Source: Minisyncoccota bacterium
Lineage (GTDB): Bacteria; Patescibacteriota; Minisyncoccia; Phycocordibacterales; UBA1550
Assembly (NCBI GenBank): GCA_041660105.1
Contig: JBAZWZ010000004.1
Span: 176 to 64,175, forward strand
Direction of reading: 5' to 3'
DNA length: 64,000 nucleotides
This document shows, in pieces, positions 47,554-64,000 of the stretch. The notes beneath the pieces are model-generated. The model was not told where the DNA came from. It saw only the letters and a program-made list of their open reading frames with translations, and did no database searches. How positions within the stretch are numbered: position 1 is the first letter of the stretch; the number at the start of each line of letters is the position of its first letter. A program made the position numbers and the translations under genes.

Positions 47554-47559
47554 ATGAAA

Positions 47560-48309: not shown

Positions 48310-48339
48310 ATCAAATTATATCAACAATAATTATCCGAT

Positions 48340-49275
48340 TTATTCTTTTGCTGGTTGTCCTTTAATAAACAACTCGGCTTGCTTTTGGTTTTCTGGGTGG
48401 ACAAAAAGTAGATTATCATATCGATAGCTTTCCTTATATTCATGCTTTTGCAAATATCCATCATTATCTATTTCATATCCAATATATCCATATTTTTTTA
48501 GGATTTCAATCGATTCCGTACAGTTTTTTGCCCACTCTTCATCTCCTCCCATCTCCAAAGTAACCAGAGGTTTAATATCTGTAAGGATATGCTGCATTGA
48601 TTGCAATATGAGATGTTCGGCCCCCTCTGCGTCTATTTTAATAAAGGTTGGTGAAACACCTTTATCTCTACAATAAGTATCGAGCGAAATCGCCTTGACC
48701 TTGATGCGATTAGCATCATCTAAAAACTTCATCTCTTCACTTGTTCGTGCTTTAAATGTGTTGAAAGCACTATACTTTGGTCCATAATCCACGAATTCTA
48801 TTTCAGTCTCCTTGTTTAGGACAGCATTATTATTTACCGTAATATTGCTTTTTTTTGATGCGTTTTCCTTTAGACTCTCAAATGTGCGCGGTGTTGGCTC
48901 AAAGCTATGCACCTGACCACTAGATTCAACAAGAGTGCTTGCAAGAATAGAGTAATAACCTACATGAGCTCCAACATCAAAAAATACATCTCCTTTTCTA
49001 AGGAAATTAATTAAAAAATTGGTAAGGTTTGCCTCCAGGAAACCATAGTAATAAATAGCGCTCCCCTCTGGCAAGTAAAACCTCATTGTATCTCCCCAGA
49101 GTGTCTTGTGGGTCACCTTAAAGGGGTGCAGATACGCAAAGCTTTGCAATATATAAAATGGGATTGTTCGTATTGGGTCTTTCAAAAGCCTCCTCATTCT
49201 ATGAGGCTGCAGCTTATAGAGCTCATATCTCTTGAGAACCATTTTTTTTAGATCTGCTCGTTGTTTTTCGTCCAT
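48340..49275 (-). CDS. FkbM-family methyltransferase
   Basis: FFDVGAHVGYYS...FEPTP...IKIDAEGAE motifs of Methyltransf_21/FkbM. Confidence 0.8.
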   Translation of the reverse strand: MDEKQRADLKKMVLKRYELYKLQPHRMRRLLKDPIRTIPFYILQSFAYLHPFKVTHKTLWGDTMRFYLPEGSAIYYYGFLEANLTNFLINFLRKGDVFFDVGAHVGYYSILASTLVESSGQVHSFEPTPRTFESLKENASKKSNITVNNNAVLNKETEIEFVDYGPKYSAFNTFKARTSEEMKFLDDANRIKVKAISLDTYCRDKGVSPTFIKIDAEGAEHLILQSMQHILTDIKPLVTLEMGGDEEWAKNCTESIEILKKYGYIGYEIDNDGYLQKHEYKESYRYDNLLFVHPENQKQAELFIKGQPAKE

Positions 49276-49407
49276 TTTTTTATTATATTAGTTTTAAGAA
49301 TAATAGCATATTTCTTTATATTTATATAATGCAACATATTGCGAATTTATCGTAAACTACGTTGAGGTGTATACTGATAAATATCGCTAATTATAAATTA
49401 GGGGTCC

Positions 49408-50094
49408 TTGGCGCAAACAATTATGAAATTAACTACATTTGACGAATTCCGTGCACAATTTCGTGATTTTTATCATTCTGTAAAAACGGGACACGAAAAT
49501 ACAAAAAAACAGTCTCATGGCGGTCACGGTATTGACCATGATATCACCGTAGCAATGATTGCTGTAAAAATATCTGACGACGAACGTATCGGACAAAAAG
49601 CTTGGTGCGCCGCTATGCTTCACTCTGTAGACCGCGTAGTGGGAGCATCCGACATCAAAGACACAATGATGAAGCACGCCGAGTACCTGAAACACTTCTT
49701 TAGTCAAAATGAGATAGACGAAATAATTGAAGCTGCATTTCGCCATTCCGAACGAAACCAGATAGATCAGAGCGAAACTCAAATTACATTAATGGACGCA
49801 GACAGACTTGCAAATATGCAGTCTGCAGTAATTATACGTTCTGGGCAATTTAGACCCGATATACCAGTTTTTGATTTTAAATATCTCTCGGGTGCGATAG
49901 ACCCCCTATCAACTTACGAAGATCCAAAAAGTGTAATTGATGATCTACGATTATGCATAATAAATTATATTCCACAGCTGAGAAATAAAGAAGCAAAGCA
50001 TCTTGGTAATATATACGCAGAGAAACTTAATGCCTATATTAGATCGATTGAGGACGAAAATGAGTATTTTGGCCTAACAAATATTGAGATATAA
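49408..50094 (+). CDS. HD-domain phosphohydrolase
   Basis: H...HD (GHGIDHDITVAM) ... H ... D (LMDADRLANM) metal-ligand pattern. Confidence 0.6.
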   Translation: MAQTIMKLTTFDEFRAQFRDFYHSVKTGHENTKKQSHGGHGIDHDITVAMIAVKISDDERIGQKAWCAAMLHSVDRVVGASDIKDTMMKHAEYLKHFFSQNEIDEIIEAAFRHSERNQIDQSETQITLMDADRLANMQSAVIIRSGQFRPDIPVFDFKYLSGAIDPLSTYEDPKSVIDDLRLCIINYIPQLRNKEAKHLGNIYAEKLNAYIRSIEDENEYFGLTNIEI

Positions 50095-50115
50095 AATAGC
50101 AACCTCAAAAGTATC

Positions 50116-50634
50116 GTGATTAAAGAAATTCTCGCATTTTTCATAAAATTTATCAATCCACATAAACCGCTTGGAACGGCGTTGTTTAATGCAGTTGCAA
50201 GAGTTAGCATATCTGTTGCTTTTGAAGCAGTAGCTTTGCGTAAAAACCCTATAAATGGCGAAACTGAAATCTACCTAATAATGCGAGTAAATGATTCTTC
50301 TTTCCCAGGACAATGGCATGTTCCTGGATCAATCTTAAGACCGAAAGAAGACGACGAGCATGTCTTTGCTCGTCTTGGTAATAAAGAATTTGGAGCAAAA
50401 ATTGTTAAATCAAAATTTATTGCAATAGTATCCTTTCCAGAAGAACCTCGTGGTCATATTATCTCTTTGGTATACAGCGTAGAACTAGACAAAGAACCTA
50501 CAGGTGGTGGCAAATGGTTCCCTGTTGACAAATTACCAACCAATTTGGTTCTCTATCATAAAGAATATATTATTCCTGTCGCAATTAATGAAGAGAATTT
50601 TGAAAGTGTTAGTATTAGAATATCAGGGATCTAA
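50116..50634 (+). CDS. Possible degenerate NUDIX-fold protein
   Basis: Weak Nudix-box-like segment GSILRPKEDDEHVFARLGNKEFGAKI. Low confidence. Confidence 0.35.
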   Translation: MIKEILAFFIKFINPHKPLGTALFNAVARVSISVAFEAVALRKNPINGETEIYLIMRVNDSSFPGQWHVPGSILRPKEDDEHVFARLGNKEFGAKIVKSKFIAIVSFPEEPRGHIISLVYSVELDKEPTGGGKWFPVDKLPTNLVLYHKEYIIPVAINEENFESVSIRISGI

Positions 50635-50674
50635 ATCAACCTCATAGCATAGTACGTAATAATATTTCAAGCGA

Positions 50675-51607
50675 CTATTTTGACATGTTGTCTATTTTAC
50701 TTATCTCGCTCTCTATCCCCTTCAGTGAGGAATATTCTGGTACATATCCAATCGTTCCAGCTTTTTTGTTTTTTGAATAATACACATTCTTTGATACTCC
50801 CGTAATGGGTTTCGGTATTTTGTTAATAACATATTTTAGTCCGTATTTTTTCTCTAAAAAAGAAAGGAGGGTGAGTTTTGAGATAGGAGCCTTGCTATAC
50901 ACATCAAAGAAATCATTTATCTTACCTTTCTTCATAACCTTCTTGATTAGAGAAAGTAGGTCTTTTGGAGTGATGTAATCTCTAACAATATTATTGTCAT
51001 CCGTTTTGAAAACTTTTTTGCTTTTCAGACAATCAACGATTTCCGAAATCATAAAATTTGGACTAACATCATAAAAACGGCTAAAAAATGCAAATACTCG
51101 CAAGTCAACAATATTTAGATTCGACAGCGACCTGTGCTTCGCTTCTGAATTCAATTTTGCAATGGCATACGATTCAGAAACATCAATGTTGTTGATATCC
51201 AAAACTGACTTCGTCTTACTACTTATTGATTTGTGGAAATTATCGCCATACACCGCTCCACTACTCATATTGATATATAGTGCTTTTGGATTTTTCAAAA
51301 GATACCTAATAACCATACTGTCGACTTCCTCAGTAGCACTAAAGACCTCTGATGGGTTCTGTTTCAAACTATTGAGACTTTTTATGCCAGTGCAGTTTAT
51401 AATCACATCGTAATTATATTTGTTAAATTCCCCGATTTCACAGATTTGAAAATTTATGTCTTTGGGATATTTTTTTACGATGGTGTGAACCTTACTTTTT
51501 GTTCGAGAAAACAAGAACAACTGAGACTTATCCTTTTCATCAAAAAACTCCCGGAGGAGTGACCTCCCGATATATCCCGTCGCTCCAAGTAAGGCTATTT
51601 TTTTCAT
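50675..51607 (-). CDS. NAD-dependent epimerase/dehydratase (extended SDR) family protein
   Basis: N-terminal LLGATGYIGRSL Rossmann motif; 310 aa. Confidence 0.75.
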   Translation of the reverse strand: MKKIALLGATGYIGRSLLREFFDEKDKSQLFLFSRTKSKVHTIVKKYPKDINFQICEIGEFNKYNYDVIINCTGIKSLNSLKQNPSEVFSATEEVDSMVIRYLLKNPKALYINMSSGAVYGDNFHKSISSKTKSVLDINNIDVSESYAIAKLNSEAKHRSLSNLNIVDLRVFAFFSRFYDVSPNFMISEIVDCLKSKKVFKTDDNNIVRDYITPKDLLSLIKKVMKKGKINDFFDVYSKAPISKLTLLSFLEKKYGLKYVINKIPKPITGVSKNVYYSKNKKAGTIGYVPEYSSLKGIESEISKIDNMSK

Positions 51608-51621
51608 AGTACAGGCAAAAA

Positions 51622-52254
51622 TTAATGTGTTTTTATGAAATCCAAAATTTCATTATACTCGCTTGCAAGCAAATCAGGATTTTCAACCTTAAGAACCTTT
51701 TCACTATGGAAACCCCAGGTTACAGCAATAGTAAGTATATTTGAATTTACCATCCTGGCTTCCTTAATATCACCCGTCGTATCAGTAATGAAAAAGACTT
51801 CCCCCCCTTTTTTATCCTTAAGTGTACTTTGGAAAAACAGGTTTTTGGGTTGGGAATTTTGTCCGATAATTTTGGTAAAATAATCCACTAACCCATAAGA
51901 TTCTAGAATATTTATAATCAATTCTCTTGGGGAGGAACTGACAATCCATAACTCTCCAAGATCTCTTGCTTTTACTACTAATTCTTTGGAAAAGCTAAAA
52001 AGCTTAACCTCCTGCGTGCGGTAATAACTAGGAAAAAGATCTGCTTTGATTTCAATGAGCCGTCGTTTTTCTTCTTCATTTAAATTCAGTAATATCGCTA
52101 GACGCTGGTTAATGTGTCCACCAAAACAAGACAGATATTCATCCATCGTCAATGTTTTATTGATTTGCGAGACAGCTTCCTTGTTCATTTTGAAAACCGT
52201 GTTAACAGAATCTGCCAACACTCCATCAAAATCAAAAATGATTACTTTGCTCAT
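51622..52254 (-). CDS. HAD-superfamily phosphatase
   Basis: IIFDFDGVLADS motif I; C-terminal D-containing motif. Confidence 0.75.
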   Translation of the reverse strand: MSKVIIFDFDGVLADSVNTVFKMNKEAVSQINKTLTMDEYLSCFGGHINQRLAILLNLNEEEKRRLIEIKADLFPSYYRTQEVKLFSFSKELVVKARDLGELWIVSSSPRELIINILESYGLVDYFTKIIGQNSQPKNLFFQSTLKDKKGGEVFFITDTTGDIKEARMVNSNILTIAVTWGFHSEKVLKVENPDLLASEYNEILDFIKTH

Positions 52255-52263
52255 GGGTAAGGT

Positions 52264-52797
52264 CTAGAATTCAGCTAACAAGGCTTTCATAAACATGCCT
52301 ATGTCGCGTGGATGACGAGACGTGATCATATTGCCATCAATTACAACTGGTTGATCTATGTATTCTGCTCCTGCATTTACAATGTCATCCTTTATTCCAA
52401 TATACCCTGTTGCTTTTTTCCCCCTAAGCAGCCCAGCTGAAATTAAAATCCACGGGCCATGGCAAAACGCAGCTACAATTTTCTTTTTCTTGTACATCTC
52501 CTGAACAAATTCTAAAACCTCTTTTATTTGACGAACACGGTCTGGGGCTTCAAAGCCACCAGGCAATAGTACCAAGTCATAGTCCTCAGCCCTTAATTTC
52601 TTTGCGTCCACTAGCCTACCATAATACTTAACCATAAGTTCTAGTGGAAAATTCATTCGACCCACCACTAGTTTTGCATCTTTTGTGGCAATGTCCACTT
52701 CAAAACCTTCCTCATGTAAACGCATAATTGGATACATAACTTCTTCGTCCTCGAACGCCTCTGCGGTAATAATTACAACTCTTTTATTTTTTTTCAT
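52264..52797 (-). CDS. DJ-1/PfpI-family protein (class I glutamine amidotransferase-like)
   Basis: AAFCHGPWIL nucleophile-elbow Cys; 177 aa. Confidence 0.8.
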   Translation of the reverse strand: MKKNKRVVIITAEAFEDEEVMYPIMRLHEEGFEVDIATKDAKLVVGRMNFPLELMVKYYGRLVDAKKLRAEDYDLVLLPGGFEAPDRVRQIKEVLEFVQEMYKKKKIVAAFCHGPWILISAGLLRGKKATGYIGIKDDIVNAGAEYIDQPVVIDGNMITSRHPRDIGMFMKALLAEF

Positions 52798-52846
52798 ATT
52801 TTAATATATTTATATTGTATGTTAATTCATCAGAATCTATTAGCGT

Positions 52847-54649
52847 TTACTCTTCCAGGGGTTTAATAAACATGTTACCTAAAAATTCTTGACGGTCCAA
52901 AAATGGGTACATGTCCTCCAGGGGTTTACTAACCATCGTGCCGTCTGCCAATTTCTCGGAAAAGACCTTGGGGAGCAGAGCCTGAGTGGGGGCCATTTTA
53001 ATATCACAAATTACTGGGCCGTCATAATTCAATGCCTGAAGAATTTTCTCCTCTACCTCGTCTTGATTTTCCATTTTAATATAGCCTAATCCAAATGTTT
53101 CGGCAACTTTTGAAAAAGGTGGAAAACTTACCCCAGACGTTGGGTCAACCGCGGCTAGATTGCCATTAAAAAAGGAATTTTGGGTATTTTTAATTGCTAG
53201 ATAGCCGTTATTGTTAAGCAAGAAAATTTTAACTGGTATTTTATAATGAGAAATTGTTTGTAATTCTTGAAGATTTAACATAATACTCCCATCCCCAGTA
53301 ATCAGGATAATCCGTTTTTTGCCAGTTGCAAACCAAGCTCCAATTGCGGAAGGCAAATCATAGCCCATAGAAGCACAACCGACACTGGAATGCAATCGCT
53401 GTCCTTTTTTTATTTTAAAAGCTTGGAGGGTCCCCGTAAAAGAAGTCCCAACGCCTGTCATTATAATCTCTCCTTCCTCCAATGTGCCAGAGAGAACCTT
53501 GGTGAAATAATACGAATTAACATAGTCTTTTTCATCTTTATATTCAGGAAGAACTACTGGGTATTTTCCCTTCCACTTTTGACAGCATTCAATCCATTCT
53601 TTTGTGTCCGCACTCAAAGATATTTGTTTATCCATTTCTTTTATAAATGCTTTTGCGTCAACATTAATAGATAAATCAGGAACAACTGTTTTTTTCTTTA
53701 ATTCCTCTATGTCGATGTCTACAACAACTTTCTTAGCACCTCGCGCGAATGCTGTATATGTGTATCCAATATTCCATAAATGATGACGGGCCCCTATACT
53801 AATTAACAAATCTGCGTTTTGGACAGTAAAATTTCCAGAGCGATCACCAAAAACACCTGGTCGTCCTATAAACAACGGACTATCTGAAGGGATTAGATCG
53901 TGTGCTGACATAGAAGTAAGCACGGGTATTTGCAGTTTTTCGGCGAGCGCTAAAAATTCTTGTTCTGCTTTCGCCAAACGAATACCATGCCCAGCGAGGA
54001 TAACTGGCCGCTTAGCCTCTTTAATCCAAGTTACAAGAGTTTCCACTTGCGATGACAAGCTGTTTCTATTCACTAGAAGCAGACCTTCCTCTTGTGCACT
54101 AAATTCCCTAAGATCACTCTCATCAACTTCCATAGCCTGGATATCCGATGGTATATCAAGGAGAACTGGGCCCGGTCGTCCATTTTTTGCCAAAAAAGTA
54201 GCTTTTTGTAGATGGTATTTGATATCGGCAACGTTTAGGACAACCTCAGAATACTTGGTTATGGGCCGCGCAATATCAGCGATGTTAATTTCTTGTACAC
54301 CAAGTTGGCGCAGATGGGTACCTGTTATCATATTGTCACGTTTAACCTGACCGCAGATATAGAGTGTGGCGATAGAATCTGTCCAAGCACCCATAATACC
54401 AGTGAGTGTATTTGTTGCGGCGGGGCCAACGGTTGTGATGCAGACACCAATGTTGCCACCTGTTCTTCCATAACTTTCAGCAGCCATTGCACAGGCCTGC
54501 TCGTGGTGATTACATACATATTTCAGCTTTGAACTATTCGCAATTGAGTTAACAAGGTGCATGTTAGCACCTCCTGGCATCAAAAAAATATGCCTAACAC
54601 CGAGTGCAGCAATGTAGTCAACTATCAAATCTGATACTTTTATTTTCAT
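52847..54649 (-). CDS. Thiamine-diphosphate-dependent enzyme of the acetolactate-synthase/YerE family
   Basis: 600 aa. N-terminal TPP-pyrimidine domain, central domain, and C-terminal TPP-binding GDG(x)24-27NN motif (ILITGDGSIMLNLQEL...LLNNNGY). Confidence 0.85.
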   Translation of the reverse strand: MKIKVSDLIVDYIAALGVRHIFLMPGGANMHLVNSIANSSKLKYVCNHHEQACAMAAESYGRTGGNIGVCITTVGPAATNTLTGIMGAWTDSIATLYICGQVKRDNMITGTHLRQLGVQEINIADIARPITKYSEVVLNVADIKYHLQKATFLAKNGRPGPVLLDIPSDIQAMEVDESDLREFSAQEEGLLLVNRNSLSSQVETLVTWIKEAKRPVILAGHGIRLAKAEQEFLALAEKLQIPVLTSMSAHDLIPSDSPLFIGRPGVFGDRSGNFTVQNADLLISIGARHHLWNIGYTYTAFARGAKKVVVDIDIEELKKKTVVPDLSINVDAKAFIKEMDKQISLSADTKEWIECCQKWKGKYPVVLPEYKDEKDYVNSYYFTKVLSGTLEEGEIIMTGVGTSFTGTLQAFKIKKGQRLHSSVGCASMGYDLPSAIGAWFATGKKRIILITGDGSIMLNLQELQTISHYKIPVKIFLLNNNGYLAIKNTQNSFFNGNLAAVDPTSGVSFPPFSKVAETFGLGYIKMENQDEVEEKILQALNYDGPVICDIKMAPTQALLPKVFSEKLADGTMVSKPLEDMYPFLDRQEFLGNMFIKPLEE

Positions 54650-54659
54650 AAATTATTAT

Positions 54660-55427
54660 CTAACCAACAATTAAACTAATGAATCCTTCTTTTGGAATAG
54701 AGTCAGTTTTTAAAGACCTGAGTAAATCTTTTGCCTCAGCAATCTCACCAATACCTAGTAATATTTGCCCTTCTTCATTCGTCAATTTATAATTCAACGG
54801 ACAAAATATTTTCCCTTTTTCTTGACTTATTTTTTCTTGAAGCTGTTCCAACGTAGTAAAATTACAAATCCTTATCACCCTGTCTTTTATCAACTTCTGA
54901 ACTTCCTCAGTTTCCTCTGCCTCATTATGAAAATCGCAGTAATGATAATTTTCAAGATTACGTGAAATAGACGCACCGCTCTCATAGCCAAGGGCCTCTC
55001 TTCCATATTCATCCTTGAGACGTACTAGGTCGCTCTTTTTTACTGGTGTTTCAATTTCCATAACAAATGAACCGTGAGTAGATACAGATTTTGTAGAATG
55101 AAAAACTCCGCGCTCAATAATAATGCCGTCCATACTTTTTAACATAAAAAGTGAGTCTAGCGATGAAGTTTCAACTTCTCCACCCAAAACCAAGAGGGAC
55201 GTCTTTTTTTTAGGATGGCAATGGGTTGAAGTCTTTGCTTTATGCTTCAGAAACAACACCCAGACAGCAACGTCCTTATTCTCGAACATTAAATACTCAT
55301 AACCCCAGGGCTTATCCACCACCACACATTTATAATCTACCTCTTCTTCTGAACATGGAACAACTGTACGTTCCAAAGACATATTAAAAAGATCTAGTTC
55401 GTTTGGAAAAATTTTTTTAATCATCAT
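54660..55427 (-). CDS. Cupin-domain protein
   Basis: KPWGYEY and STHCHPKKKTSLLVLGGEVE match cupin motif 1, G(x)5HxH(x)3-4E(x)6G. Start uncertain (55424-55463). Confidence 0.5.
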   Translation of the reverse strand: MMIKKIFPNELDLFNMSLERTVVPCSEEEVDYKCVVVDKPWGYEYLMFENKDVAVWVLFLKHKAKTSTHCHPKKKTSLLVLGGEVETSSLDSLFMLKSMDGIIIERGVFHSTKSVSTHGSFVMEIETPVKKSDLVRLKDEYGREALGYESGASISRNLENYHYCDFHNEAEETEEVQKLIKDRVIRICNFTTLEQLQEKISQEKGKIFCPLNYKLTNEEGQILLGIGEIAEAKDLLRSLKTDSIPKEGFISLIVG

Positions 55428-56208
55428 TATTTTTAAATAACCAAGATTCAGAATTTTCCTCAAATGACTTATTCAGTGATTTGCGCTCCCTGTCGTTGTC
55501 AACGCATTGCCAAAAACCACGGTGCTCAAATATGTTAATTTGATTATTGTTAACTAACTTTTCAAAAACCTCATTTTCCAAAATACATTCATTGTACGGA
55601 GTAAGATAATCAAATATTTTATTTTTTAAAACCATAAACCCTCCGTTTACTAATCCATTCTGGCTTTGTAATTTAGATATCCTTTTATACTCGACTGGGT
55701 TACCGTCCTTCATAATAAACTCACCATATCTAAATGGGGGGAAGATGCCACTGACCGTTGCAAGCTTACTCTGCTTTTTATGAAAACTAACCAACTTCTT
55801 GATGTCTATATCAGCCAAACAATCAGAATAAGCAAGCAAAAAGTCTTCCTCGCCTAAATATTTTTGACATCTAGACAAACGAGCCCCCGTGCCACTTTCT
55901 TCTCCAGTCTCTACAAAAGTAATTTTCCAATCTTCTTCTTGGTTTTGAGTATTGTAAGTTAATTTTGATTGACCAAGTGCCAATGTTAAATCATTAACAT
56001 TTTCATTGTAGTGCAAGAAGTAATCACGTATAATTTCTCCTCCTGAACCTAGTGCTAGGACAAATTCGTTGTATCCATATCCAGAGTATATTTTCATTAC
56101 GTGCCACAAAAGAGGCCTGTGCCCAATCTTTACCATACCTTTCGGTATAAAATCTAATGAGTCATCAAACCTAATTCCTTTTCCACCGCAAAGAATTGCA
56201 ACTTTCAT
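55417..56208 (-). CDS. Divergent sugar-1-phosphate nucleotidyltransferase paralog (RfbF-like, degenerate GGxGTRL motif)
   Basis: Colinear with the adjacent rfbF-like gene, but N-terminal CGGKGIRF replaces GGLGTRL, and SDCLADID replaces YGDGVADVD. Confidence 0.65.
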   Translation of the reverse strand: MKVAILCGGKGIRFDDSLDFIPKGMVKIGHRPLLWHVMKIYSGYGYNEFVLALGSGGEIIRDYFLHYNENVNDLTLALGQSKLTYNTQNQEEDWKITFVETGEESGTGARLSRCQKYLGEEDFLLAYSDCLADIDIKKLVSFHKKQSKLATVSGIFPPFRYGEFIMKDGNPVEYKRISKLQSQNGLVNGGFMVLKNKIFDYLTPYNECILENEVFEKLVNNNQINIFEHRGFWQCVDNDRERKSLNKSFEENSESWLFKNNDD

Positions 56209-56305
56209 AAAATACTTTTTATATGTTGCAACTATACAAAAAATGATGGGTCAAGTCAAATACATGTATTAGTTCACTACACCATTATAAATCACGAATT
56301 TTATA

Positions 56306-57076
56306 TTAGTCCCAGATCCTCCAGGGTGCCTTATCTTTATTCCACATATCCTCAAGCTTAACTTTATCATGAAGTGTGTCCATTGCCTTCCAAAAACCAT
56401 CATGATGAAAGGCAACTAATTTGCCATCCTTCGCAAGCCTCTCAAGGGGTCTTTTTTCAAAAGGCATATCGTCCCCTTCTAAATATTCAAATATTTCTGG
56501 TTCTAAAACAAAGAAACCTCCACTCACTCTGTTTTTATTATCTGTTTTTTCACTAAAATTAGTGACTGTTGAATTTTCATCAAAAGCGAGCGTGCCAAAT
56601 CTCCCCTCAGGAACTACGGATGTAACCGTAGCTAATGCCTTATTTTTTTTATGAAACTCTACTAATTTATTAATATCCACATCAGCAACACCGTCACCGT
56701 ATGTCAACATAAATGTCTCAGCATCAATATAATCTTTTATTCTCTTTATTCTCCCCCCCGTCATTGTTTCAGCCCCCGTATCAACCAGTGTCACTTTCCA
56801 TTTTTCGCTTCGACTATTGTGATGGGTGATACTATTATTTTGCAAGTCAAACGTTACATCGCTATTATACAAATAATGATCATTAAACCATTCCTTTATT
56901 AAGTGCCCTTTATACCCAAGACAAATAACAAACTCGTTGTACCCGTAGTTGGAGTACAACTTCATTATATGCCACAAAATAGGCTTGCCACCTATCTCAA
57001 CCATCGGTTTTGGCTTTATGCTCGTCTCCTCACTCAATCTAGTACCAAGTCCTCCTGCTAAAATTACGACTTTCAT
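56306..57076 (-). CDS. rfbF: Glucose-1-phosphate cytidylyltransferase
   Basis: MKVVILAGGLGTRLSEETSIKPKPMVEIGGKPILWHIM is a near-canonical RfbF/DdhA N-terminus; 256 aa. Confidence 0.85.
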   Translation of the reverse strand: MKVVILAGGLGTRLSEETSIKPKPMVEIGGKPILWHIMKLYSNYGYNEFVICLGYKGHLIKEWFNDHYLYNSDVTFDLQNNSITHHNSRSEKWKVTLVDTGAETMTGGRIKRIKDYIDAETFMLTYGDGVADVDINKLVEFHKKNKALATVTSVVPEGRFGTLAFDENSTVTNFSEKTDNKNRVSGGFFVLEPEIFEYLEGDDMPFEKRPLERLAKDGKLVAFHHDGFWKAMDTLHDKVKLEDMWNKDKAPWRIWD

Positions 57077-57081
57077 ATTAT

Positions 57082-57351
57082 TTATCCGAGAAAATTTTTA
57101 CTAATAAAAAAATTGTTTAAGACCCTTTTGATGTGATTTCGTCCGTATTGTGTTTTCATATACTTTTCTCGATTATATGCATCTTTACTATTAATGTACG
57201 CTTCATAGTAAATAATTGCAAACGGTGCATTTCTTTTTGTTGAGGCAACTTTTTTTGCATTATGCAATACCAACCGAGCCTTTTTATCTTTCGTACAACC
57301 TGTGTATAATTCACCATTCTTTTTACTCTCAAGTATGTAAACGTATTGCAT
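57082..57351 (-). CDS. Free-standing GIY-YIG nuclease-domain protein (UPF0213-like)
   Basis: YVYILES...GELYTGCTKD...R...H, an 89-aa single-domain GIY-YIG. Confidence 0.75.
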   Translation of the reverse strand: MQYVYILESKKNGELYTGCTKDKKARLVLHNAKKVASTKRNAPFAIIYYEAYINSKDAYNREKYMKTQYGRNHIKRVLNNFFISKNFLG

Positions 57352-57369
57352 AATGAGTTAGTAAAAACT

Positions 57370-58458
57370 TTAGCGGATATTTCCAAAAAAATTATTAATC
57401 TGCTTATTGGTGAATTCTACCACATCTTCTTTATTGTCATAATAATTTTTATACCAATCAAAAGTGAGGTTTAAAGTTTCCTGAAAATTGAGTTTTGGCG
57501 CCCAATCAAGAAGGGCAATCGCTTTATTGATATCAAGCTTTAAAAGACTGGCTTCATGTTTTGATATATCAGGAATAATTTGATAACCACCTTTCCCTAG
57601 AATTTCTTTACTTCCTTCTACGAGGCTTTTTACATTATGGAAGCTTTCATTGTTTGGTCCAAAGTTCCAAGCACCTGACAAGTCAGTTCTTCCTTCATAC
57701 AATCCCTGCCCCAACTCAAGATATCCCGCAAGAGGCTCGAGAACGTGCTGCCATGGTCGGATAGACTCTGGGTTTCTAATTATCACATCTTTTCCTTCGT
57801 GGTACACAGCCCTAATAATATCGGGAATCAGTCTGTATTCCGCCCAGTCCCCACCTCCAATAACATTCCCCGCTCTTGTTATAGCTACGAGGGTTGCGTG
57901 TTTTCCCCCAAAATCTTTTGGATTAAAAAAAGACTGAATGTATGAACTTGAAATAATATCTGCGGCTGCCTTACTGGAGCTGTAGGGATCATAGCCACCG
58001 AGGGGATCATTTTCGCGGTAAGCATGATGCCATTCCTTATTGTCATAAACCTTATCAGTCGTAATAACAACAGCAGACTTTACAGACTTCGTTTCTCTTG
58101 TTGCTTCAAGAAAATTTGCTGTGCCCATAACATTCGTTGATATGGTATCTATGGGGTCATCGTAACTAGTTCTCACTATCGCTTGAGCTGCTAAGTGAAA
58201 TACAATCTCAGGCTGTTCATCCTTAAAAAATTTTTTAAGAGCATCAATATCTCTAATATCAACAAAATAATTCTTTATATTCTTTTCTTGATTTAACACC
58301 TCAAACAAACTTGGAGTTGTGTTGGGCTTCAAAGAAATCCCGACTACTTCCGCTCCCCAATTCAATAATATTTGAGTTAGCCAAGCACCCTTAAACCCCG
58401 TATGTCCCGTTATGAGAACTTTTTTGTTTTTATAAAATTCGTTCATATTATTATCCAA
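57370..58458 (-). CDS. rfbG: CDP-glucose 4,6-dehydratase
   Basis: VLITGHTGFKGAWL N-terminus; SDR YxxxK; ~360 aa, typical of RfbG/DdhB. Confidence 0.85.
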   Translation of the reverse strand: MDNNMNEFYKNKKVLITGHTGFKGAWLTQILLNWGAEVVGISLKPNTTPSLFEVLNQEKNIKNYFVDIRDIDALKKFFKDEQPEIVFHLAAQAIVRTSYDDPIDTISTNVMGTANFLEATRETKSVKSAVVITTDKVYDNKEWHHAYRENDPLGGYDPYSSSKAAADIISSSYIQSFFNPKDFGGKHATLVAITRAGNVIGGGDWAEYRLIPDIIRAVYHEGKDVIIRNPESIRPWQHVLEPLAGYLELGQGLYEGRTDLSGAWNFGPNNESFHNVKSLVEGSKEILGKGGYQIIPDISKHEASLLKLDINKAIALLDWAPKLNFQETLNLTFDWYKNYYDNKEDVVEFTNKQINNFFGNIR

Positions 58459-58560
58459 ACAAAAATAGGTAGAGTGACACGTATTTATTGCCTATTCTTC
58501 AAAAAAGGATTATACTTTCTCTATTATTATTGATAGTAACATAAAAAACCCAGTAAGAAC

Positions 58561-59784
58561 ATGGCCAAAGCAAGTAAAGCAAAATTAAGAGTCCCCTATG
58601 GTTTCTCGGTTCACGGACAGGCAGAAATTGATGCAGTTGTTGCTGTCCTCAAAAAAGGGACTGCTCTTGGTGATAAAACCAAAGAATTTGAGGCAAAGAT
58701 TGCAAAAATGTTTGGTAAGAAATACGGAGTTATGGTCAACTCTGGATCCTCAGCAAACCTCCTCGCGTTTGAGTTACTTAATCTTCCAAGAGGTTCAGAG
58801 GTGATTACTCCTATTTTGACATTTGCTACCGTTGTTGCGCCGATGATTCAAAAAGGTCTTGTTCCTGTATTTATTGATGTTGATCCTGCCACATATATTA
58901 TCAACCCGGAACAAGTTGAAAAGGCTATCACCAAAAAAACAAAAGCATTGATGATACCTTCTCTTATGGGGAATATTCCCAACATGGTGGCTCTTGCTAA
59001 AATTGCAAAGAAGCATAAATTGTTTTTCATAGAGGACTCATGCGACACTTTGGGGGGTAAGTTTGGAGGGAAGCCAACAGGAACATATTCAGACATTACT
59101 ACAACGAGTTTCTATGGCTCTCATATTATTAACGGCGCGGGTGGAGGCGGTATGATTATGGTCAATGACCCTAAATGGGTCGACAAGCTTGTCGTTCTTC
59201 GTGGTTGGGGAAGAGAATCTTCTCTCTTTGGAGAAAATGCAGACTCTGAGCTTATCAAGAACCGCTTTAGTGGGAAAATAGGAAACATCCCTTACGACAA
59301 CAAATTCATCTTTAGTCAGATTGGGTACAATTTCCTTCCTCTTGAGCTTTCTGCTGCTTTTGCACTGGAACAACTCAAGAGACTCCCTGGTTTCATTACA
59401 AAAAGAAAGGAGCATTTTGCTGATCTATTAAGTTTTTTCGAGAAGAGAGATAAATATTTTATCCTACCCAAGCAGACTACTAACACTGAGACTGTTTGGC
59501 TCGCCTTCCCTCTCATCATTAAACCGGGAGCACCATTTACTCGTTTGGAACTCGTTACCTTCCTTGAAGAGGAGAATATTCAAACAAGGCCTATCTTTAC
59601 AGGGAACATCTTGAAGCAGCCTGGTTTCAAGAAAATCGAACATCGAAAACTGAGTGAGGCCTTCCCTAACACAGAACTTGTTATGAAAAATGGCTTTGTT
59701 GTAGCATGCCACCACGGACTTGAGGAAATACATCATCTCTATCTCAGGAATAAATTTGATGAGTTTTTGGCGCGATACAAGTAA
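58561..59784 (+). CDS. DegT/DnrJ/EryC1-family PLP/PMP enzyme with His replacing the Schiff-base Lys: predicted nucleotide-sugar 3-dehydratase (ColD/E1-like)
   Basis: Fold-type I sugar aminotransferase family (GSSANLLAF, DxxxAxG). The lysine position of SF(H/Y)xxK reads SFYGSH. Only two Cys in 407 aa, so no E1-type [2Fe-2S] site. Confidence 0.7.
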   Translation: MAKASKAKLRVPYGFSVHGQAEIDAVVAVLKKGTALGDKTKEFEAKIAKMFGKKYGVMVNSGSSANLLAFELLNLPRGSEVITPILTFATVVAPMIQKGLVPVFIDVDPATYIINPEQVEKAITKKTKALMIPSLMGNIPNMVALAKIAKKHKLFFIEDSCDTLGGKFGGKPTGTYSDITTTSFYGSHIINGAGGGGMIMVNDPKWVDKLVVLRGWGRESSLFGENADSELIKNRFSGKIGNIPYDNKFIFSQIGYNFLPLELSAAFALEQLKRLPGFITKRKEHFADLLSFFEKRDKYFILPKQTTNTETVWLAFPLIIKPGAPFTRLELVTFLEEENIQTRPIFTGNILKQPGFKKIEHRKLSEAFPNTELVMKNGFVVACHHGLEEIHHLYLRNKFDEFLARYK

Positions 59785-59809
59785 TAGTGCTTAAAGTGTT
59801 TTCAAAAAA

Positions 59810-60358
59810 ATGAAAATATCACCCACAAAATTAAAAGGAGTTTTTGTCATTGAAACTGATTTCTCTGAAGATGAGCGAGGCTCTTTTTCAAAAACCTTCC
59901 ATGCTGATATTTTCAAAAAATATAAACTGAGTAGAAATTTTAAGGAAAGTTTCTTTTCAATATCAAACAAAAATGTTATACGAGGTATGCATTTTCATTT
60001 GCCCCCAAGAGATCACGCCAAGCTCATATATGTAACACACGGTGCTATTCTTGATGTTGTGCTGGATCTTAGGAAGGATTCAAAAACATACGGTGATTAT
60101 GTATCAGTTGAACTCTCACAAAAAAATCACAAAGGTATCTATATACCAACTGGTTGCGCGCATGGTTTTCTTTCTTTAGAAGATAGTACTTGCACTGTTT
60201 ATTTGCAAACAAGTATGTATTCAAAAGAGCACGACACTGGTGTAAACATAGGCTCATTTGGAATGAAATGGGGGGTAAAAAATCCAGTCATCTCTAAAAG
60301 GGATAAAGGCTTAATGGCATTTAAGGATTTTGTTTCACCTTTTAATAAAACAAAATGA
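59810..60358 (+). CDS. RmlC-like cupin sugar-nucleotide 3,5-(or 5-)epimerase
   Basis: RGMHFH...HGF motifs of dTDP-4-dehydrorhamnose 3,5-epimerase-like enzymes; 182 aa. Confidence 0.8.
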   Translation: MKISPTKLKGVFVIETDFSEDERGSFSKTFHADIFKKYKLSRNFKESFFSISNKNVIRGMHFHLPPRDHAKLIYVTHGAILDVVLDLRKDSKTYGDYVSVELSQKNHKGIYIPTGCAHGFLSLEDSTCTVYLQTSMYSKEHDTGVNIGSFGMKWGVKNPVISKRDKGLMAFKDFVSPFNKTK

Positions 60359-61236
60359 AAATACTAATTAGTGGATCAACGGGTTTTATTGGAAAACATT
60401 TAACTGAGAAATTATTAGAAAAAAATGATGATGTTTGCGTTGTTATAAGGCCCTCTACTGATAAAAATAGTCTTAATAAAAAAGTTAGGGTTTACGTTTT
60501 TGACAATAATGTCAACGAATTGATTTCCTACTTGAAAAAGGAGCAGTTTGATGGAGTAATACATCTCGCTTCCCTCTTTTTGGCACAACATAAAACAGAA
60601 GATATTCCTGAATTAATAAATTCTAATGTTCTATTGGGCACAGCTCTGCTTGAAGCAGCAAGCAAAAGCAATGTGACATGGTTCATTAACACAGGGACTT
60701 TTTGGCAACATTACAAGAATAAAAAGTACTCCCCCGTCAATTTGTATGCAGCAACAAAACAAGCTTTCGAATCCATCGCGCAGTATTATATTGAAACATC
60801 TTCCATTAATTTTGTCACCATAAAATTATCTGACACATTCGGGCCACTCGATACAAGGCAAAAAATTCTAAATTTACTACTTAAGATAAGCAAGACGGGT
60901 GAAAAACTAGATATGTCTCCAGGTAATCAACTTATAGATATAAGCTATATCGACAGTGTTATTGATGGCTATTTACGGATGATTGATTTACTATCAAAGG
61001 ACGCAAAGAGGAGTATGAATGGTAAATCATTTGTCGTAAGCTCAGGAAAACCAGTATCACTTAGAAAACTAGCAGCGATTTTTGAAAAAGTAAGCAATAA
61101 GAAATTAAATATCAACTGGGGAGGAAAAGAATACCGACAAAGAGAAGTTATGGTACCATGGGGCAAGGGAGTTAAAATACCTGGTTGGAAACCTGGGGTA
61201 TCATTAGAAAAAGCAATTAGAAATACTATCAAATAA
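60355..61236 (+). CDS. NAD(P)-dependent SDR (putative 4-ketoreductase of the deoxysugar pathway)
   Basis: ILISGSTGFIGKHL Rossmann motif; 293 aa; translationally coupled (4-nt overlap) to the epimerase. Confidence 0.7.
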   Translation: MKILISGSTGFIGKHLTEKLLEKNDDVCVVIRPSTDKNSLNKKVRVYVFDNNVNELISYLKKEQFDGVIHLASLFLAQHKTEDIPELINSNVLLGTALLEAASKSNVTWFINTGTFWQHYKNKKYSPVNLYAATKQAFESIAQYYIETSSINFVTIKLSDTFGPLDTRQKILNLLLKISKTGEKLDMSPGNQLIDISYIDSVIDGYLRMIDLLSKDAKRSMNGKSFVVSSGKPVSLRKLAAIFEKVSNKKLNINWGGKEYRQREVMVPWGKGVKIPGWKPGVSLEKAIRNTIK

Positions 61237-61239
61237 TTT

Positions 61240-62163
61240 ATGCTGTTAACAATTGATGAAAATCTAATAGATCAAGATACTTGCCCTGTTTGTGGCGGAG
61301 ATGGCATCGTAATCGACACCATTAATACGATCAACCCTTCTTCAAATAAAAAAATTGATCTCGTAGAATGTGCATTATGTAAACATTGGTGGCACAATAA
61401 ATTACCTAACCAGAAACTATTAAATGACTTATATCAATCTGGATCGGAATATGTAGTTCCCGCAACTTATGCAAAAGCAGTCGTAACAAAACCGTCAAAG
61501 AATATCGACGATCTATTATTTGAAAAAATTTTTAATCAGCTATCCTCATATTCAAATAAAATCTCTAGCACCAAAAAATCATTCAACTATTTAGAACTAG
61601 GAATTGGATCGGGTCATATGTTTGACTTTTTTTCAAAAAAAGCAAACGTATCATATGGTGTGGAGCCTGGAAAATGGGTGCTTTCAGAAAATCAGAATAT
61701 CATCTCAGACGTTAAAGAAACACCGACTGATATTAAATTTGACTTAATTGTAGCCTCTGATGTTTTAGAACATCTCAGCAATCCGACCAATATGCTTAGC
61801 ACACTGAGAGGGTTTGCGGGCAACGATGGTATCATTTATTGTACATTCCCCAACAAAGATTCATTAAAGGCTCAGATTCAAAAAGGTGGGTGGCACATGG
61901 TGCGACCTTTTGGACATTTGCATTATTTTTCAGCACAATCCATAAAAAATACTTTCAAGAAATCTGGTTGGAAGATTGTTAAAATGAGGAAGCGTCGTAT
62001 CGCTGATAGCAGCATCCTTGATTTAATTAAAAAATTTGACACATCCAGTAAAAACATATTGTATCGTCTTGTGAAAAGTTTACTTGTCGGACAAATCCTT
62101 CTTGGAAAAGACCAGTGGTCCGTCATAGCTCTTAATGATAAAGAAATGTCAAACTACTTTTAG
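61240..62163 (+). CDS. Class I SAM-dependent methyltransferase with N-terminal Zn-ribbon
   Basis: CPVCGG...CALCKH zinc ribbon. LELGIGSGHMFDFF (motif I) and DLIVASDVLEHL (motif II/III). Confidence 0.7.
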   Translation: MLLTIDENLIDQDTCPVCGGDGIVIDTINTINPSSNKKIDLVECALCKHWWHNKLPNQKLLNDLYQSGSEYVVPATYAKAVVTKPSKNIDDLLFEKIFNQLSSYSNKISSTKKSFNYLELGIGSGHMFDFFSKKANVSYGVEPGKWVLSENQNIISDVKETPTDIKFDLIVASDVLEHLSNPTNMLSTLRGFAGNDGIIYCTFPNKDSLKAQIQKGGWHMVRPFGHLHYFSAQSIKNTFKKSGWKIVKMRKRRIADSSILDLIKKFDTSSKNILYRLVKSLLVGQILLGKDQWSVIALNDKEMSNYF

Positions 62164-62181
62164 TTTAAAAACTAATTAAAA

Positions 62182-63480
62182 ATGAATACTTACGAGAAAG
62201 TTATACACTACACAAGAGGGAAGCTTGCGCATCCTGGCATCCAAAAACATTCAAGAAACATGGGTTGGATGTTTTTTTCAAGGATAGCAAGTTTGGTTGT
62301 AGCCTTCATAACTACCGCCTATATTGCACGACATCTTGGACCAACAAACTACGGGCAACTAAGCTACGCGATTAGTTTCACTGGGCTTTTTGGTTTCCTG
62401 GCGTCTCTCGGCATTGACCAGATCCTCTACCGCGATCTCATTAGATATCCAGAAAAAAGAGATGTTTATATGGGAACCGCACTCGCCTTGAGATTGGCGG
62501 CGGGTATCATTACGGTAGTTCTTTGTACTGCTTCAGCATATATCTGGTCACCAAAGGATGTATCCCTTATTCTTATTTTCCTAGTGAGTTTAACTTTTGT
62601 TTTTGGCTCATTCCTATTACTGGGCTACGAGTTTCAAGCAGAAGCTAAATCAAAGTACCCTTCAATTTTTTCCACTATAATCATAATATTTTTAAATATT
62701 TTAAAGATATTAGTAATTTTTAACGATGAAGGTGTTATTTACCTTGCAGGACTTATTGTTCTTGAACCAATACTTTACGCACTTGGTTATTGGTATTTAA
62801 GAACGCGAGAGTATGGGAGCCTCAAAAACCTAAAATTTGATGGTCTTGTCGCTATTTCAATTTTAAAAGACTCATTCCCTCTTATTTTCGCTTCTGCATT
62901 TGTTGCAGCGTCAGCGCGCATAGACCAAGTTATGATAAAAAATATGATGGATACTGAATCAGTTGGTCTTTATGATTCAGCAGTAAGAATTTCTGAGTTG
63001 TTATATTTTGTTCCCAACATAATCATTACCGCCCTCTTCCCCGCTATAATTAACTCAAAAAAAGTTTCTGATGAATTATACTACAAGAGAACAAAAAAAC
63101 TGTTTGTGTTGGTCGTTGGTATTTCTATATTTTTGGCGATACCAACAGCGTTATTATCGAAATATTTAATCACTATAATATTCGGGGCTGGCTTCATTGG
63201 AGCATTCCCAGTTTTACAAATATATGTTTGGAGTAACATCGGCGCAGCTATGAGTATATTGGTAGGAAGTTTTTTAGTTGCCGAAAATATGACAAAAATA
63301 ATATCTCTAACAACTTTTTGTGGAATGATAACAAATGTCATTTTAAACTTAATCCTTATACCAAAATACGGGATGTCGGGGGCGGCGTTTGCTAGCCTTA
63401 TTTCATACACCATCCCCTTCCTTTCCGTCTTCTTTTTTAAAAAGACAAGGCAATTAGCATTAAATATTTTCAAAATATGA
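62182..63480 (+). CDS. Wzx-type polysaccharide flippase (MOP superfamily)
   Basis: 432 aa with about 12 TM helices and a polysaccharide-biosynthesis-protein architecture. Confidence 0.8.
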   Translation: MNTYEKVIHYTRGKLAHPGIQKHSRNMGWMFFSRIASLVVAFITTAYIARHLGPTNYGQLSYAISFTGLFGFLASLGIDQILYRDLIRYPEKRDVYMGTALALRLAAGIITVVLCTASAYIWSPKDVSLILIFLVSLTFVFGSFLLLGYEFQAEAKSKYPSIFSTIIIIFLNILKILVIFNDEGVIYLAGLIVLEPILYALGYWYLRTREYGSLKNLKFDGLVAISILKDSFPLIFASAFVAASARIDQVMIKNMMDTESVGLYDSAVRISELLYFVPNIIITALFPAIINSKKVSDELYYKRTKKLFVLVVGISIFLAIPTALLSKYLITIIFGAGFIGAFPVLQIYVWSNIGAAMSILVGSFLVAENMTKIISLTTFCGMITNVILNLILIPKYGMSGAAFASLISYTIPFLSVFFFKKTRQLALNIFKI

Positions 63481-64000
63481 AAACAACAATCACAATAGCT
63501 ATCCCCTCTTATAATAAAGAAAAATACATTAAGAAATGTTTATCTAGTATCTTGAATGAAAAACATTATATAGACAAAATAATTCTCTTGGACAATTGTT
63601 CTACTGATAAGACTTTTGAGATTGCAAAAACCTTTGAGCCTGAAATAAAATGTATTCAAAACGATACAAATTTAGGGATGGTGGGCAATTGGAATAAATG
63701 CATTGAGCTATGTGAAACTGATTGGCTCATGATTTTTCACGCTGATGACGAAATGGTCCCAGATGTTGTTTCTCACTACAGAGAAACAATTCAAAAATAC
63801 CCAACCGCAAACCTCGTTTGCGCAAACGCATATTCGATAATTGAAGAAGACGAGTCTACAAAAAGTTTAGGCAAGAGTGACCCAAAAGAATTCTATCGCG
63901 CAGGACTAGAAGCAATGGGTTGCCGAGGAAGCGTTTGCTCGGCGGTTATGGTCAAAAAGGAAGCGTATAATAAGCTCGGGTATTTTATTGACTCACTATC
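63477..64000 (+). CDS. Family-2 glycosyltransferase (5' partial, continues past the window end)
   Basis: MKTTITIAIPSYNKEKYI...LLDNCSTDKT...FHADDEM GT-A motifs; ATG at 63477 overlapping the wzx stop. Confidence 0.75.
   Translation, partial: MKTTITIAIPSYNKEKYIKKCLSSILNEKHYIDKIILLDNCSTDKTFEIAKTFEPEIKCIQNDTNLGMVGNWNKCIELCETDWLMIFHADDEMVPDVVSHYRETIQKYPTANLVCANAYSIIEEDESTKSLGKSDPKEFYRAGLEAMGCRGSVCSAVMVKKEAYNKLGYFIDSL

Follow-up and report, generated by a model that had tools for sequence, protein, structure and literature searches.

A Cys-less relative of the E1 sugar 3-dehydratase and a YerE-like carboligase in a predicted CDP-deoxysugar locus of Candidatus Paceibacteria

The locus described here lies on contig JBAZWZ010000004.1 of a Minisyncoccota bacterium (GenBank assembly GCA_041660105.1), in a stretch of 64,000 nucleotides (64 kb) that we call the window and whose positions are counted from its first letter. 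Two divergent operons are of interest, and within them two enzymes: a DegT-family protein related to the sugar 3-dehydratase E1 (the E1-like protein) and a 600-aa enzyme related to YerE that depends on thiamine pyrophosphate (TPP; also thiamine diphosphate, ThDP), referred to as the TPP enzyme. All open reading frames (ORFs) are at the positions given by an earlier note on this DNA. Proteins of the window match those of a Candidatus Paceibacteria/Paceibacterota MAG (metagenome-assembled genome) at 100% identity, which bears out the guess of the note that the genome belongs to the candidate phyla radiation (CPR). That note ended the minus-strand operon at 52847, which was wrong; by ORF coordinates, nine closely packed genes run from 58458 down to 50675, with a DJ-1/PfpI-family protein, a HAD hydrolase, and a short-chain dehydrogenase/reductase (SDR) extending the operon as part of a module conserved across phyla. 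On the plus strand, the divergent operon begins with the DegT-family protein and continues with an RmlC-fold epimerase, a 293-aa SDR, a methyltransferase, and a Wzx flippase; on the parent contig (L001; comparison loci carry L numbers throughout), five glycosyltransferases come next, three of family GT2 and one each of GT4 and GT10. The features are as follows.

50675..51607, minus strand: extended SDR, 310 aa, final gene of the minus operon; candidate reductase of YerF type for a side chain or a 4-keto group (PF01370, 62 bits)
51622..52254, minus strand: HAD-superfamily hydrolase, weakly like phosphoglycolate phosphatase or beta-phosphoglucomutase (beta-PGM) (PF13419, 58 bits; NCBIfam matches weak)
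52264..52797, minus strand: DJ-1/PfpI-family protein, directly downstream of the TPP gene (TIGR01382, 159.6 bits, cut-off 139)
52847..54649, minus strand: YerE-like ThDP-dependent carboligase, candidate sugar C-branching enzyme, 600 aa (PF02776, PF00205, PF02775; JanthE 8RPH, 426 bits)
54660..55424, minus strand: cupin protein, ~254 aa (invariant His68/His70/His109)
55417..56208, minus strand: divergent cytidylyltransferase paralogue (40% identity to RfbF; TIGR02623, 249.7 bits, under the cut-off)
56306..57076, minus strand: glucose-1-phosphate cytidylyltransferase, RfbF/DdhA (TIGR02623, 391.7 bits, cut-off 300)
57082..57351, minus strand: GIY-YIG domain ORF, 89 aa, between rfbG and rfbF (PF01541, 55.9 bits)
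57370..58458, minus strand: CDP-glucose 4,6-dehydratase, RfbG/DdhB (TIGR02622, 477.9 bits, cut-off 278)
58459..58560, no strand: divergent intergenic region of 102 bp separating the two operons (from ORF coordinates)
58561..59784, plus strand: E1-like sugar 3-dehydratase candidate of the DegT family, dependent on pyridoxamine 5'-phosphate (PMP) (Pfam DegT, 260 bits; His188 at the Lys position; [2Fe-2S] site absent)
59810..60358, plus strand: RmlC-fold CDP-4-keto-sugar epimerase candidate (PF00908, 180 bits)
60355..61236, plus strand: SDR, 293 aa; candidate 4-ketoreductase completing the deoxysugar (PF01370, 109 bits)
61240..62163, plus strand: S-adenosylmethionine-dependent methyltransferase (PF13489, 75.7 bits)
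62182..63480, plus strand: Wzx-type flippase (PF01943, 96 bits)

When solved structures were ranked with HMMER, the E1-like protein was closest to E1 (CDP-6-deoxy-L-threo-D-glycero-4-hexulose 3-dehydrase; PDB 3BCX, 257 bits), followed by ColD (190 bits), with true aminotransferases well below. Its identity is 37% to E1 and 34% to ColD. The earlier note had proposed that a His in the motif SFYGSH occupies the position of the Schiff-base Lys, and alignment to E1, ColD, and genuine DegT aminotransferases confirmed this. In the multiple alignment, the His stands in the column of E1 His220 and of the Lys of genuine Lys-type DegT enzymes. The register for ColD was taken from the HMMER pairwise alignment, which pairs His188 of the E1-like protein with His188 of ColD; MAFFT had placed ColD one residue out of register at SFY..H.

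The absence of the four-Cys [2Fe-2S] site of E1, also claimed earlier, was upheld by the alignment with E1. The E1 ligands follow the pattern C193-X57-C251-X-C253-X7-C261, and three of the four are lost; the E1-like protein keeps only the equivalent of C193, a Cys that is present in ColD as well. Its site pattern is C-H-L-G-I, compared with C-H-C-C-C in E1. Where canonical E1s read WGRDC--[YW]C...TC, the corresponding stretch in the window reads WGRESSLFGENADSE, and the loop at the ligand region is ESSLFGENADSE; a loop of E1 length has been retained, minus the cysteines. This is a property of the clade and not of one protein. The best 120 database homologues (73-100% identity) all have SFYGSH[IV]IN, and none has the Cys loop. 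Among 148 clade members, His188 is invariant (148/148), the four-Cys set is conserved nowhere, and just two Cys positions reach a majority, both of them replaceable. Since the ligands are absent and no Cys set is conserved in the clade, a [2Fe-2S] site in the E1-like protein is excluded on sequence grounds. A further mark of this Cys-less clade is the loss of the Glu of the GEGG motif: E1, ColD, and aminotransferases keep it, and the clade has Gly, Thr, or Ala in its place throughout (GAGGGG at residues 192-197 of the E1-like protein).

A search of 1.84 billion representatives clustered at 50% identity returned 1093 matches at E<=1e-30. Nearly all of the best 150 of these have His at the E1 His220 position, and among those that seem not to are truncated entries and slips of the local alignment; about 55 of the same 150 carry the complete C-H-C-C-C signature and about 95 are without the loop cysteines. 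A rough neighbour-joining (NJ) tree, which carries no support values and is used descriptively, gathers the Fe-S E1s into one coherent clade that includes the Yersinia E1, places the E1-like protein in a large Cys-less clade neighbouring it, and puts ColD in a separate, more basal Cys-less group. The "ColD-like" affiliation suggested in the earlier note consequently fails as a statement of descent, given the higher score to E1, the loop of E1 length, and the tree position beside the Fe-S E1s. Nor does the protein reach the cut-off of the RfbH equivalog model PRK15407 (349.2 bits against 423). It is thus neither E1 proper nor ColD proper, but a member of a big, functionally uncharacterised clade. 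With thousands of members, this clade is widespread and not peculiar to this genome. It is strongly conserved in CPR bacteria, with at least 73% identity across many CPR lineages, and the Cys-less form appears to be the usual one there.

Domain fusions give some indication of the company that Cys-less E1-like domains keep. Their partners include a 4,6-dehydratase-type SDR (P0241), an RmlC-like epimerase (P0247), other SDRs, and, in P0293 and P0264, RmlC-like plus RmlD-like domains; a ferredoxin or ferredoxin-NADP reductase (FNR) domain was found in none of the 10 fusions examined. Genes of the same RmlC-like and SDR types repeatedly flank a distant marine subclade (~50% identity). Database labels for Cys-less members vary and include "CDP-4-dehydro-6-deoxyglucose reductase, E1", "aminotransferase class I/II", and "NarL family transcriptional regulator" (P0011, P0036, P0069). 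Such labels are unsupported by the sequence features seen.

The genomic setting of the E1-like gene is that of a CDP-glucose pathway, as the earlier note had stated. RfbF and RfbG both score above their equivalog cut-offs and are adjacent, and the arrangement recurs in other loci. Of the two glucose-1-phosphate cytidylyltransferases that had been claimed, one is secure by this standard, while the second (40% identical to the first) falls below the TIGR02623 cut-off and is better described as a divergent paralogue. The divergent rfbG/E1-like arrangement was seen again in L001, L003, L009, L011, L012, L063, L066, and L068. More generally, the E1-like gene is divergently paired with rfbG, or adjoins rfbF/rfbG, in independent CPR contigs, whether loci were sampled around the TPP gene (L009, L011, L012, L020) or around the E1-like gene (L063, L064, L066-L069, L073, L076, L077). 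In a Cephaloticoccus (Verrucomicrobia) MAG and a Magasanikbacteria MAG, a canonical C-H-C-C-C E1 accompanies orthologous TPP modules (60-62% identity), which argues that the Cys-less and Fe-S forms fill the same pathway slot and are interchangeable. The resemblance to E1/DdhC/AscC/RfbH therefore extends from the DegT fold, the His, and the loop to the cytidylyltransferase/4,6-dehydratase context and the position in the cluster, and E1 is the closest solved relative. The differences are the missing equivalents of C251, C253, and C261, the RfbH score, the replaced Glu, the separate NJ clade, and the lack of a detectable E3 in the window. ColD (GDP-4-keto-6-deoxy-D-mannose 3-dehydratase; 2GMS/3B8X) is, like the E1-like protein, a PMP enzyme of the His type that has no Fe-S cluster, but it has a shorter loop, a more basal position, and a GDP-mannose context, whereas the context here is CDP-glucose (TIGR02622/TIGR02623). 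Another CPR genome (L003/L004/L068, 2945-9909) couples its Cys-less E1-like/rfbG pair with a split transketolase, a TylC3-type C-methyltransferase (PF08421/PF08484), and a GFO/IDH/MocA oxidoreductase. There, the split transketolase set replaces the acetolactate synthase (ALS)-like TPP module, which makes it a different ThDP route to branched sugars.

The earlier note also relied on the absence of E3, the reductase that serves E1. No E3 was found in the window, either by homology or by a six-frame scan for plant-type ferredoxin/FNR motifs, which picked up nothing but shadow ORFs on the antisense strand and the C-terminal zinc motif of SecA, so that this part of the claim stands. Its value as evidence is small, however. 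Although no E3 homologue was detected in 36 E1-centred loci, one lies within 10 kb in only 3 of ~23 canonical Fe-S E1 loci, all Bacteroidota; the query was an E3-like ORF from Flavobacterium, and it matched these three loci only. As most canonical Fe-S E1 loci also have no adjacent E3, and as SpnQ uses general reductases, a missing E3 is weak evidence. The argument for Fe-S-free chemistry is carried by the loss of the ligands and not by the absence of E3.

For the TPP enzyme, the best solved relative is JanthE (8RPH, 426 bits, 37% identity), ahead of plant acetohydroxyacid synthase (AHAS, ~259 bits) and PpYerE (5AHK, 251 bits). JanthE is a ThDP enzyme of the YerE-like group and joins 2-oxo acids with ketones. 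The motif GDGS...NN is canonical in the TPP enzyme, whereas JanthE has CDG at the same place. All ALS models score under their curated cut-offs (TIGR00118, 386 against 538; another model, 373 against 976). In a scan of one genome per species, 54 TPP loci were found, of which 52 had a good TPP match and were analysed; they come from CPR, Bacteroidota, Sulfuricurvum, Gastranaerophilales, Firmicutes, Nitrospiraceae, Acidobacteria, Verrucomicrobia, and others. Cultivable carriers of the family include Vallitalea maricola (L024), Pedobacter psychrophilus (L048), and Flavobacterium sp. KJJ (L045). Within 10 kb of the TPP gene, 38 of the 52 loci carry one or more of three genes (rfbF, rfbG, and that of a His-type E1) and 24 carry the complete set, with an Fe-S E1 in 23 and a Cys-less one in 9; these co-occurrence counts are lower bounds, many of the contigs being short. 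In yersiniose and erwiniose clusters, YerE or ErwE acts on CDP-4-keto-3,6-dideoxyglucose, and the TPP loci show the genomic signature described for those clusters. By homology, then, the TPP enzyme is a YerE-like carboligase and not an acetolactate synthase, and this prediction of the earlier note was borne out by the JanthE and AHAS scores, the ALS cut-offs, and the linkage to rfbF, rfbG, and His-type E1.

The general idea of YerE-like enzymes in deoxysugar clusters is not new. According to published predictions, more than 200 deoxysugar clusters encode such enzymes. Together with the size of the Cys-less clade, this removes the uniqueness that the earlier note had implied for the combination. 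With the carboligases YpYerE, ErwE, MMAR_2332, and JanthE, the TPP enzyme shares a three-domain ALS-like architecture and a cluster predicted to supply CDP-4-keto-3,6-dideoxyglucose. It differs from YerE, ErwE, and JanthE in being embedded in a module with a cupin, a DJ-1/PfpI protein, a HAD hydrolase, and a nucleotidyltransferase. No mention of such a module was found in the publications consulted on YerE, ErwE, and JanthE. One Patescibacteria MAG (L034) has rfbF, an SDR, and a Lys-type DegT protein beside three TPP-enzyme paralogues in a single locus.

The order within the module is nucleotidyltransferase paralogue, cupin, TPP enzyme, DJ-1/PfpI, and HAD, followed by an SDR or a GT2. It is conserved in the window and in L009-L012, L015, L020, and L073 (CPR), L006/L014 (Verrucomicrobia), and L007/L013 (Magasanikbacteria). 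Its parts are retained to different extents. The paralogue precedes the cupin and TPP genes in L006, L007, L009, L010, and L073, and it is absent from the close relatives L011, L012, and L020, which keep cupin-TPP-DJ-1-HAD. DJ-1 directly follows the TPP gene in L006, L007, L009-L012, L015, L043, L046, and L073, and HAD follows DJ-1 in all of these except L043 and L046. In L009, L011, and L012 the module closes with orthologues of the 310-aa SDR; in L007 an SDR of the Epimerase family stands after HAD. The cupin belongs to a family of about 1460 detected members of ~255 aa, without annotation, in which His68, His70, and His109 are invariant. Since these homologues begin at MIKK..., we favour a start at 55424, with an 8-nt overlap with the upstream paralogue, over 55463; the longest ORF (54660-55463, 267 aa, TTG start) is probably 13 codons too long. 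The AlphaFold model of the cupin has a predicted local distance difference test score (pLDDT) of 88.6, which makes it a confident one, and its likeness to metal cupins such as cysteine dioxygenase and lyxose isomerase is limited to the barrel.

Two variants of the module bear on its function. In a Pelagibacteraceae genome (L043, 4648-13494) and a gammaproteobacterial MAG (L046), rfbF, rfbG, and E1 are missing around the cupin, TPP, and DJ-1/PfpI genes, whose neighbours are two Lys-type DegT aminotransferases, a PhyH dioxygenase, a zinc-dependent alcohol dehydrogenase, and methyltransferases. The unit of TPP, DJ-1, and cupin genes is thus found outside 3,6-dideoxy pathways as well. In Magasanikbacteria (L007, 4046-8495, the same as L013), a second TPP enzyme comes right after an acetaldehyde dehydrogenase, a DmpG-type aldolase, and an HpcH aldolase, and this set, with its ErwI/ErwJ-like donor-supply genes, sits immediately upstream of a window-type module. 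That cluster may make a long-branch sugar of the erwiniose or caryophyllose type via two ThDP steps, and it shows that CPR clusters can carry two such steps.

The earlier note proposed that an epimerase and a reductase complete an ascarylose-type sugar, and this remains plausible. The best match of the RmlC-fold epimerase is WbcA, a CDP-sugar epimerase (5BUV, 161 bits, versus ~112 for RmlCs), and Cys-less domains are fused to RmlC-like and RmlD-like domains elsewhere. The order of an RmlC-fold epimerase followed by an SDR matches the ascarylose finish (AscE 5-epimerase, AscF 4-reductase), a likeness of order and fold. Among solved structures, the 293-aa SDR has distant relatives only and the 310-aa SDR has no close one. 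L001 and L012 have the pair formed by the epimerase and the 293-aa SDR, and L009 and L011 do not; the 310-aa SDR goes along with the TPP module. Consequently, we favour the 310-aa SDR as the YerF-type partner of the TPP enzyme and regard the pair as an accessory ascarylose-type branch.

Taken together, we lean, with moderate confidence, towards the view that this locus is a surface-glycan island of a Candidatus Paceibacteria (CPR) bacterium making one or more CDP-activated sugars derived from a 3,6-dideoxyhexose, by way of Fe-S-free deoxygenation and YerE-like branching. By their curated family membership, RfbF makes CDP-glucose and RfbG converts it to CDP-4-keto-6-deoxy-D-glucose. The E1-like enzyme, with His188 in place of Lys, would hold PMP non-covalently, form a ketimine at C4, and expel the C3 hydroxyl as in E1 and ColD. 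Lacking a [2Fe-2S] cluster, it would take no electrons from an E3-type reductase. A 2022 review gives E1, ColD, and SpnQ as the only characterised 3-dehydratases. E1 and SpnQ use PMP, a [2Fe-2S] cluster, and an external reductase, SpnQ working with general reductases. ColD, the sole Fe-S-free enzyme and the only precedent for reductase-independent C3 deoxygenation, uses PMP and pyridoxal 5'-phosphate (PLP) with transamination and is known for GDP-mannose. As ColD is the sole Fe-S-free precedent, we infer a turnover of its type as most likely: the enamine would be released hydrolytically and tautomerise, ammonia would be lost, and PMP would be regenerated by transamination. The predicted product is CDP-4-keto-3,6-dideoxy-D-glucose.

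Two uses of this product can be envisaged. The YerE-like enzyme may decarboxylate a 2-oxo acid and add the acyl anion at C4, which would give a branched tertiary alcohol for reduction by the SDR of the module (50675-51607). The paralogue, the three-His cupin, DJ-1/PfpI, and HAD would then supply an unusual donor or tailor the acyloin branch, the most economical idea for these four partners. In the second use, the WbcA-like epimerase and the 293-aa SDR may convert the product to an L-configured 3,6-dideoxyhexose of the ascarylose type, or they may work on the branched sugar. The methyltransferase, the Wzx flippase, and the glycosyltransferases would serve glycan assembly and export. The earlier note had expected the two-carbon branch of yersiniose A; because the conserved module extends past 52847, the branch chemistry is probably not that simple and likely goes beyond it. 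The mechanism is inferred, though the main predictions withstood every sequence-level test that was applied, and the interpretation of the earlier note is overall partly supported. A bolder version, which we hold only tentatively and think rather doubtful, is that the Cys-less clade is a third, mechanistically distinct class of 3-dehydratase and the main CPR route to 3,6-dideoxyhexoses, and that the module performs undescribed branched-sugar chemistry. The module might then, for instance, use an unusual 2-oxo-acid donor, phosphorylated or hydroxylated, that HAD releases, or it might rearrange or oxidise the acyloin branch in a metal-dependent way.

Several observations weigh against the favoured interpretation. 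The E1-like protein is under the RfbH cut-off, its identity to E1 and ColD is modest, and the GEGG Glu is replaced throughout its clade. It falls outside the ColD clade in a tree that has no support values, and regeneration of the ColD type is argued only from the want of an alternative. The search of the source genome for a reductase covered 64 kb only. On the side of the branching step, the TPP enzyme is 37% identical to JanthE, an enzyme whose own physiological substrate is not established, and four module genes (the paralogue, the cupin, DJ-1, and HAD) are without explained roles. The trio in L043 and L046 means that the acceptor of the TPP enzyme need not be a 3,6-dideoxy sugar, and where a second TPP enzyme stands by ErwI/J-type genes, as in L007, the window-type enzyme might act otherwise. 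Finally, the whole pathway is read from sequence, and none of it is biochemical.

The two steps can each be explained differently. With respect to deoxygenation, the E1-like enzyme could be a 3-dehydratase that follows a reductive E1/SpnQ-like route, in which a general reductase or a small-molecule reductant feeds the PMP-glucoseen directly, with no enzyme-bound Fe-S. The protein is indeed nearer to E1 than to ColD, keeps the E1-length loop, and sits beside the Fe-S E1s in the NJ tree, SpnQ indicates that a dedicated E3 is dispensable, and most canonical loci have none adjacent. In both E1 and SpnQ, however, the conduit for electrons is the enzyme's own [2Fe-2S] cluster, for which there is no conserved Cys set here; no redox-partner domain occurs in the 10 fusions examined, and the route has no known precedent, so that we consider it quite unlikely. 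It is less likely still that the protein is no 3-dehydratase at all and instead has another PMP/PLP outcome on a CDP-4-keto sugar, such as epimerisation or one-shot amination, or is a non-catalytic partner. The RfbH score and the replaced GEGG Glu would suit such a role, but the change from Lys to His at the Schiff-base position is known from 3-dehydratases only, the extreme conservation across CPR lineages speaks against it, and the fusions to 4,6-dehydratase and epimerase/reductase domains match the slot of a 3-dehydratase.

With respect to branching, the TPP module could form a separate pathway, in which a ThDP enzyme makes a C-C bond on a phosphorylated precursor and an isomerase, a phosphatase or mutase, and the nucleotidyltransferase follow, giving another CDP-activated sugar or a polyol-like substituent with no branching of the 3,6-dideoxyhexose. 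The conservation of the block across three phyla fits this idea, as do its own nucleotidyltransferase and a cupin of the phosphomannose isomerase (PMI) type, which together resemble a split bifunctional guanosine diphosphate-mannose pyrophosphorylase (GMP)/PMI enzyme; the similarity of HAD to phosphatases or beta-PGM; the trio without rfbF/rfbG/E1 in L043 and L046; and the extra TPP enzyme in L007, which could be the true brancher there. We nevertheless judge it unlikely, given that the TPP enzyme has a YerE-like protein that accepts ketones as its closest characterised homologue, that the family at large overwhelmingly goes with rfbF/rfbG/E1, that L011, L012, and L020 keep cupin-TPP-DJ-1-HAD without the paralogue, and that the module has no kinase. 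That the TPP enzyme is an ordinary branched-chain amino-acid acetolactate synthase that happens to lie in the cluster is hardly credible. ALS large-subunit models are its top NCBIfam matches (E-values ~1e-115), yet each misses its cut-off by a wide margin, and every AHAS is much more distant than JanthE. The gene lies within a nine-gene sugar operon, no other gene of the nine-gene and divergent operons belongs to an ilv family by family assignment, and the TPP family tracks rfbF/rfbG/E1 across phyla. We regard the acetolactate synthase reading as effectively refuted by these scores and this linkage.

The surroundings of the operons have features of their own. GC content is 0.34-0.39 in the island and about 0.42-0.48 outside it, with the low-GC span reaching from about 46000 to 64000 in the window. 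This low-GC glycan island also houses GT11, DUF268, FkbM methyltransferase, HD, and Nudix genes. The fall in GC and the gene content are typical of variable, possibly exchanged, surface-polysaccharide loci. The GIY-YIG ORF at 57082..57351 is probably not a pathway enzyme. It is kept in the near-identical contigs L001 and L063 and is not found between rfbG and rfbF in L009, L011, and L012, and its restriction at this position to near-identical contigs suggests a small insertion with a nuclease domain. A scan of 50400-58800 for promoters and terminators gave 33 promoter-like sites, not above the 29.6 expected from shuffled sequences, and a tRNA scan of the window found none.

ColD supplies a chemical precedent, and YerE-like clusters are already being mined. 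The locus brings together an Fe-S-less relative of E1, very widespread though uncharacterised, and a YerE-like subfamily whose conserved partners have no explanation so far. Our literature search found nothing tying Patescibacteria/CPR to CDP-deoxysugars and no CDP-linked Fe-S-free 3-dehydratase, and it returned nothing on PDB entry 9WVY. Characterisation of one clade member would tell whether ColD-type chemistry also serves a CDP-glucose pathway, and it would correct many "E1 reductase" and "aminotransferase" labels, re-annotating thousands of proteins. The TPP module adds candidate ketone-accepting ThDP carboligases, which are sought as a means of making tertiary alcohols.

CPR bacteria have tiny genomes and limited redox machinery. 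The TPP module points to undescribed branched sugars on their surfaces, which would probably be relevant to host attachment. If the bolder version given above is true, the outcome would be a new monosaccharide on the surface of episymbiotic CPR bacteria.

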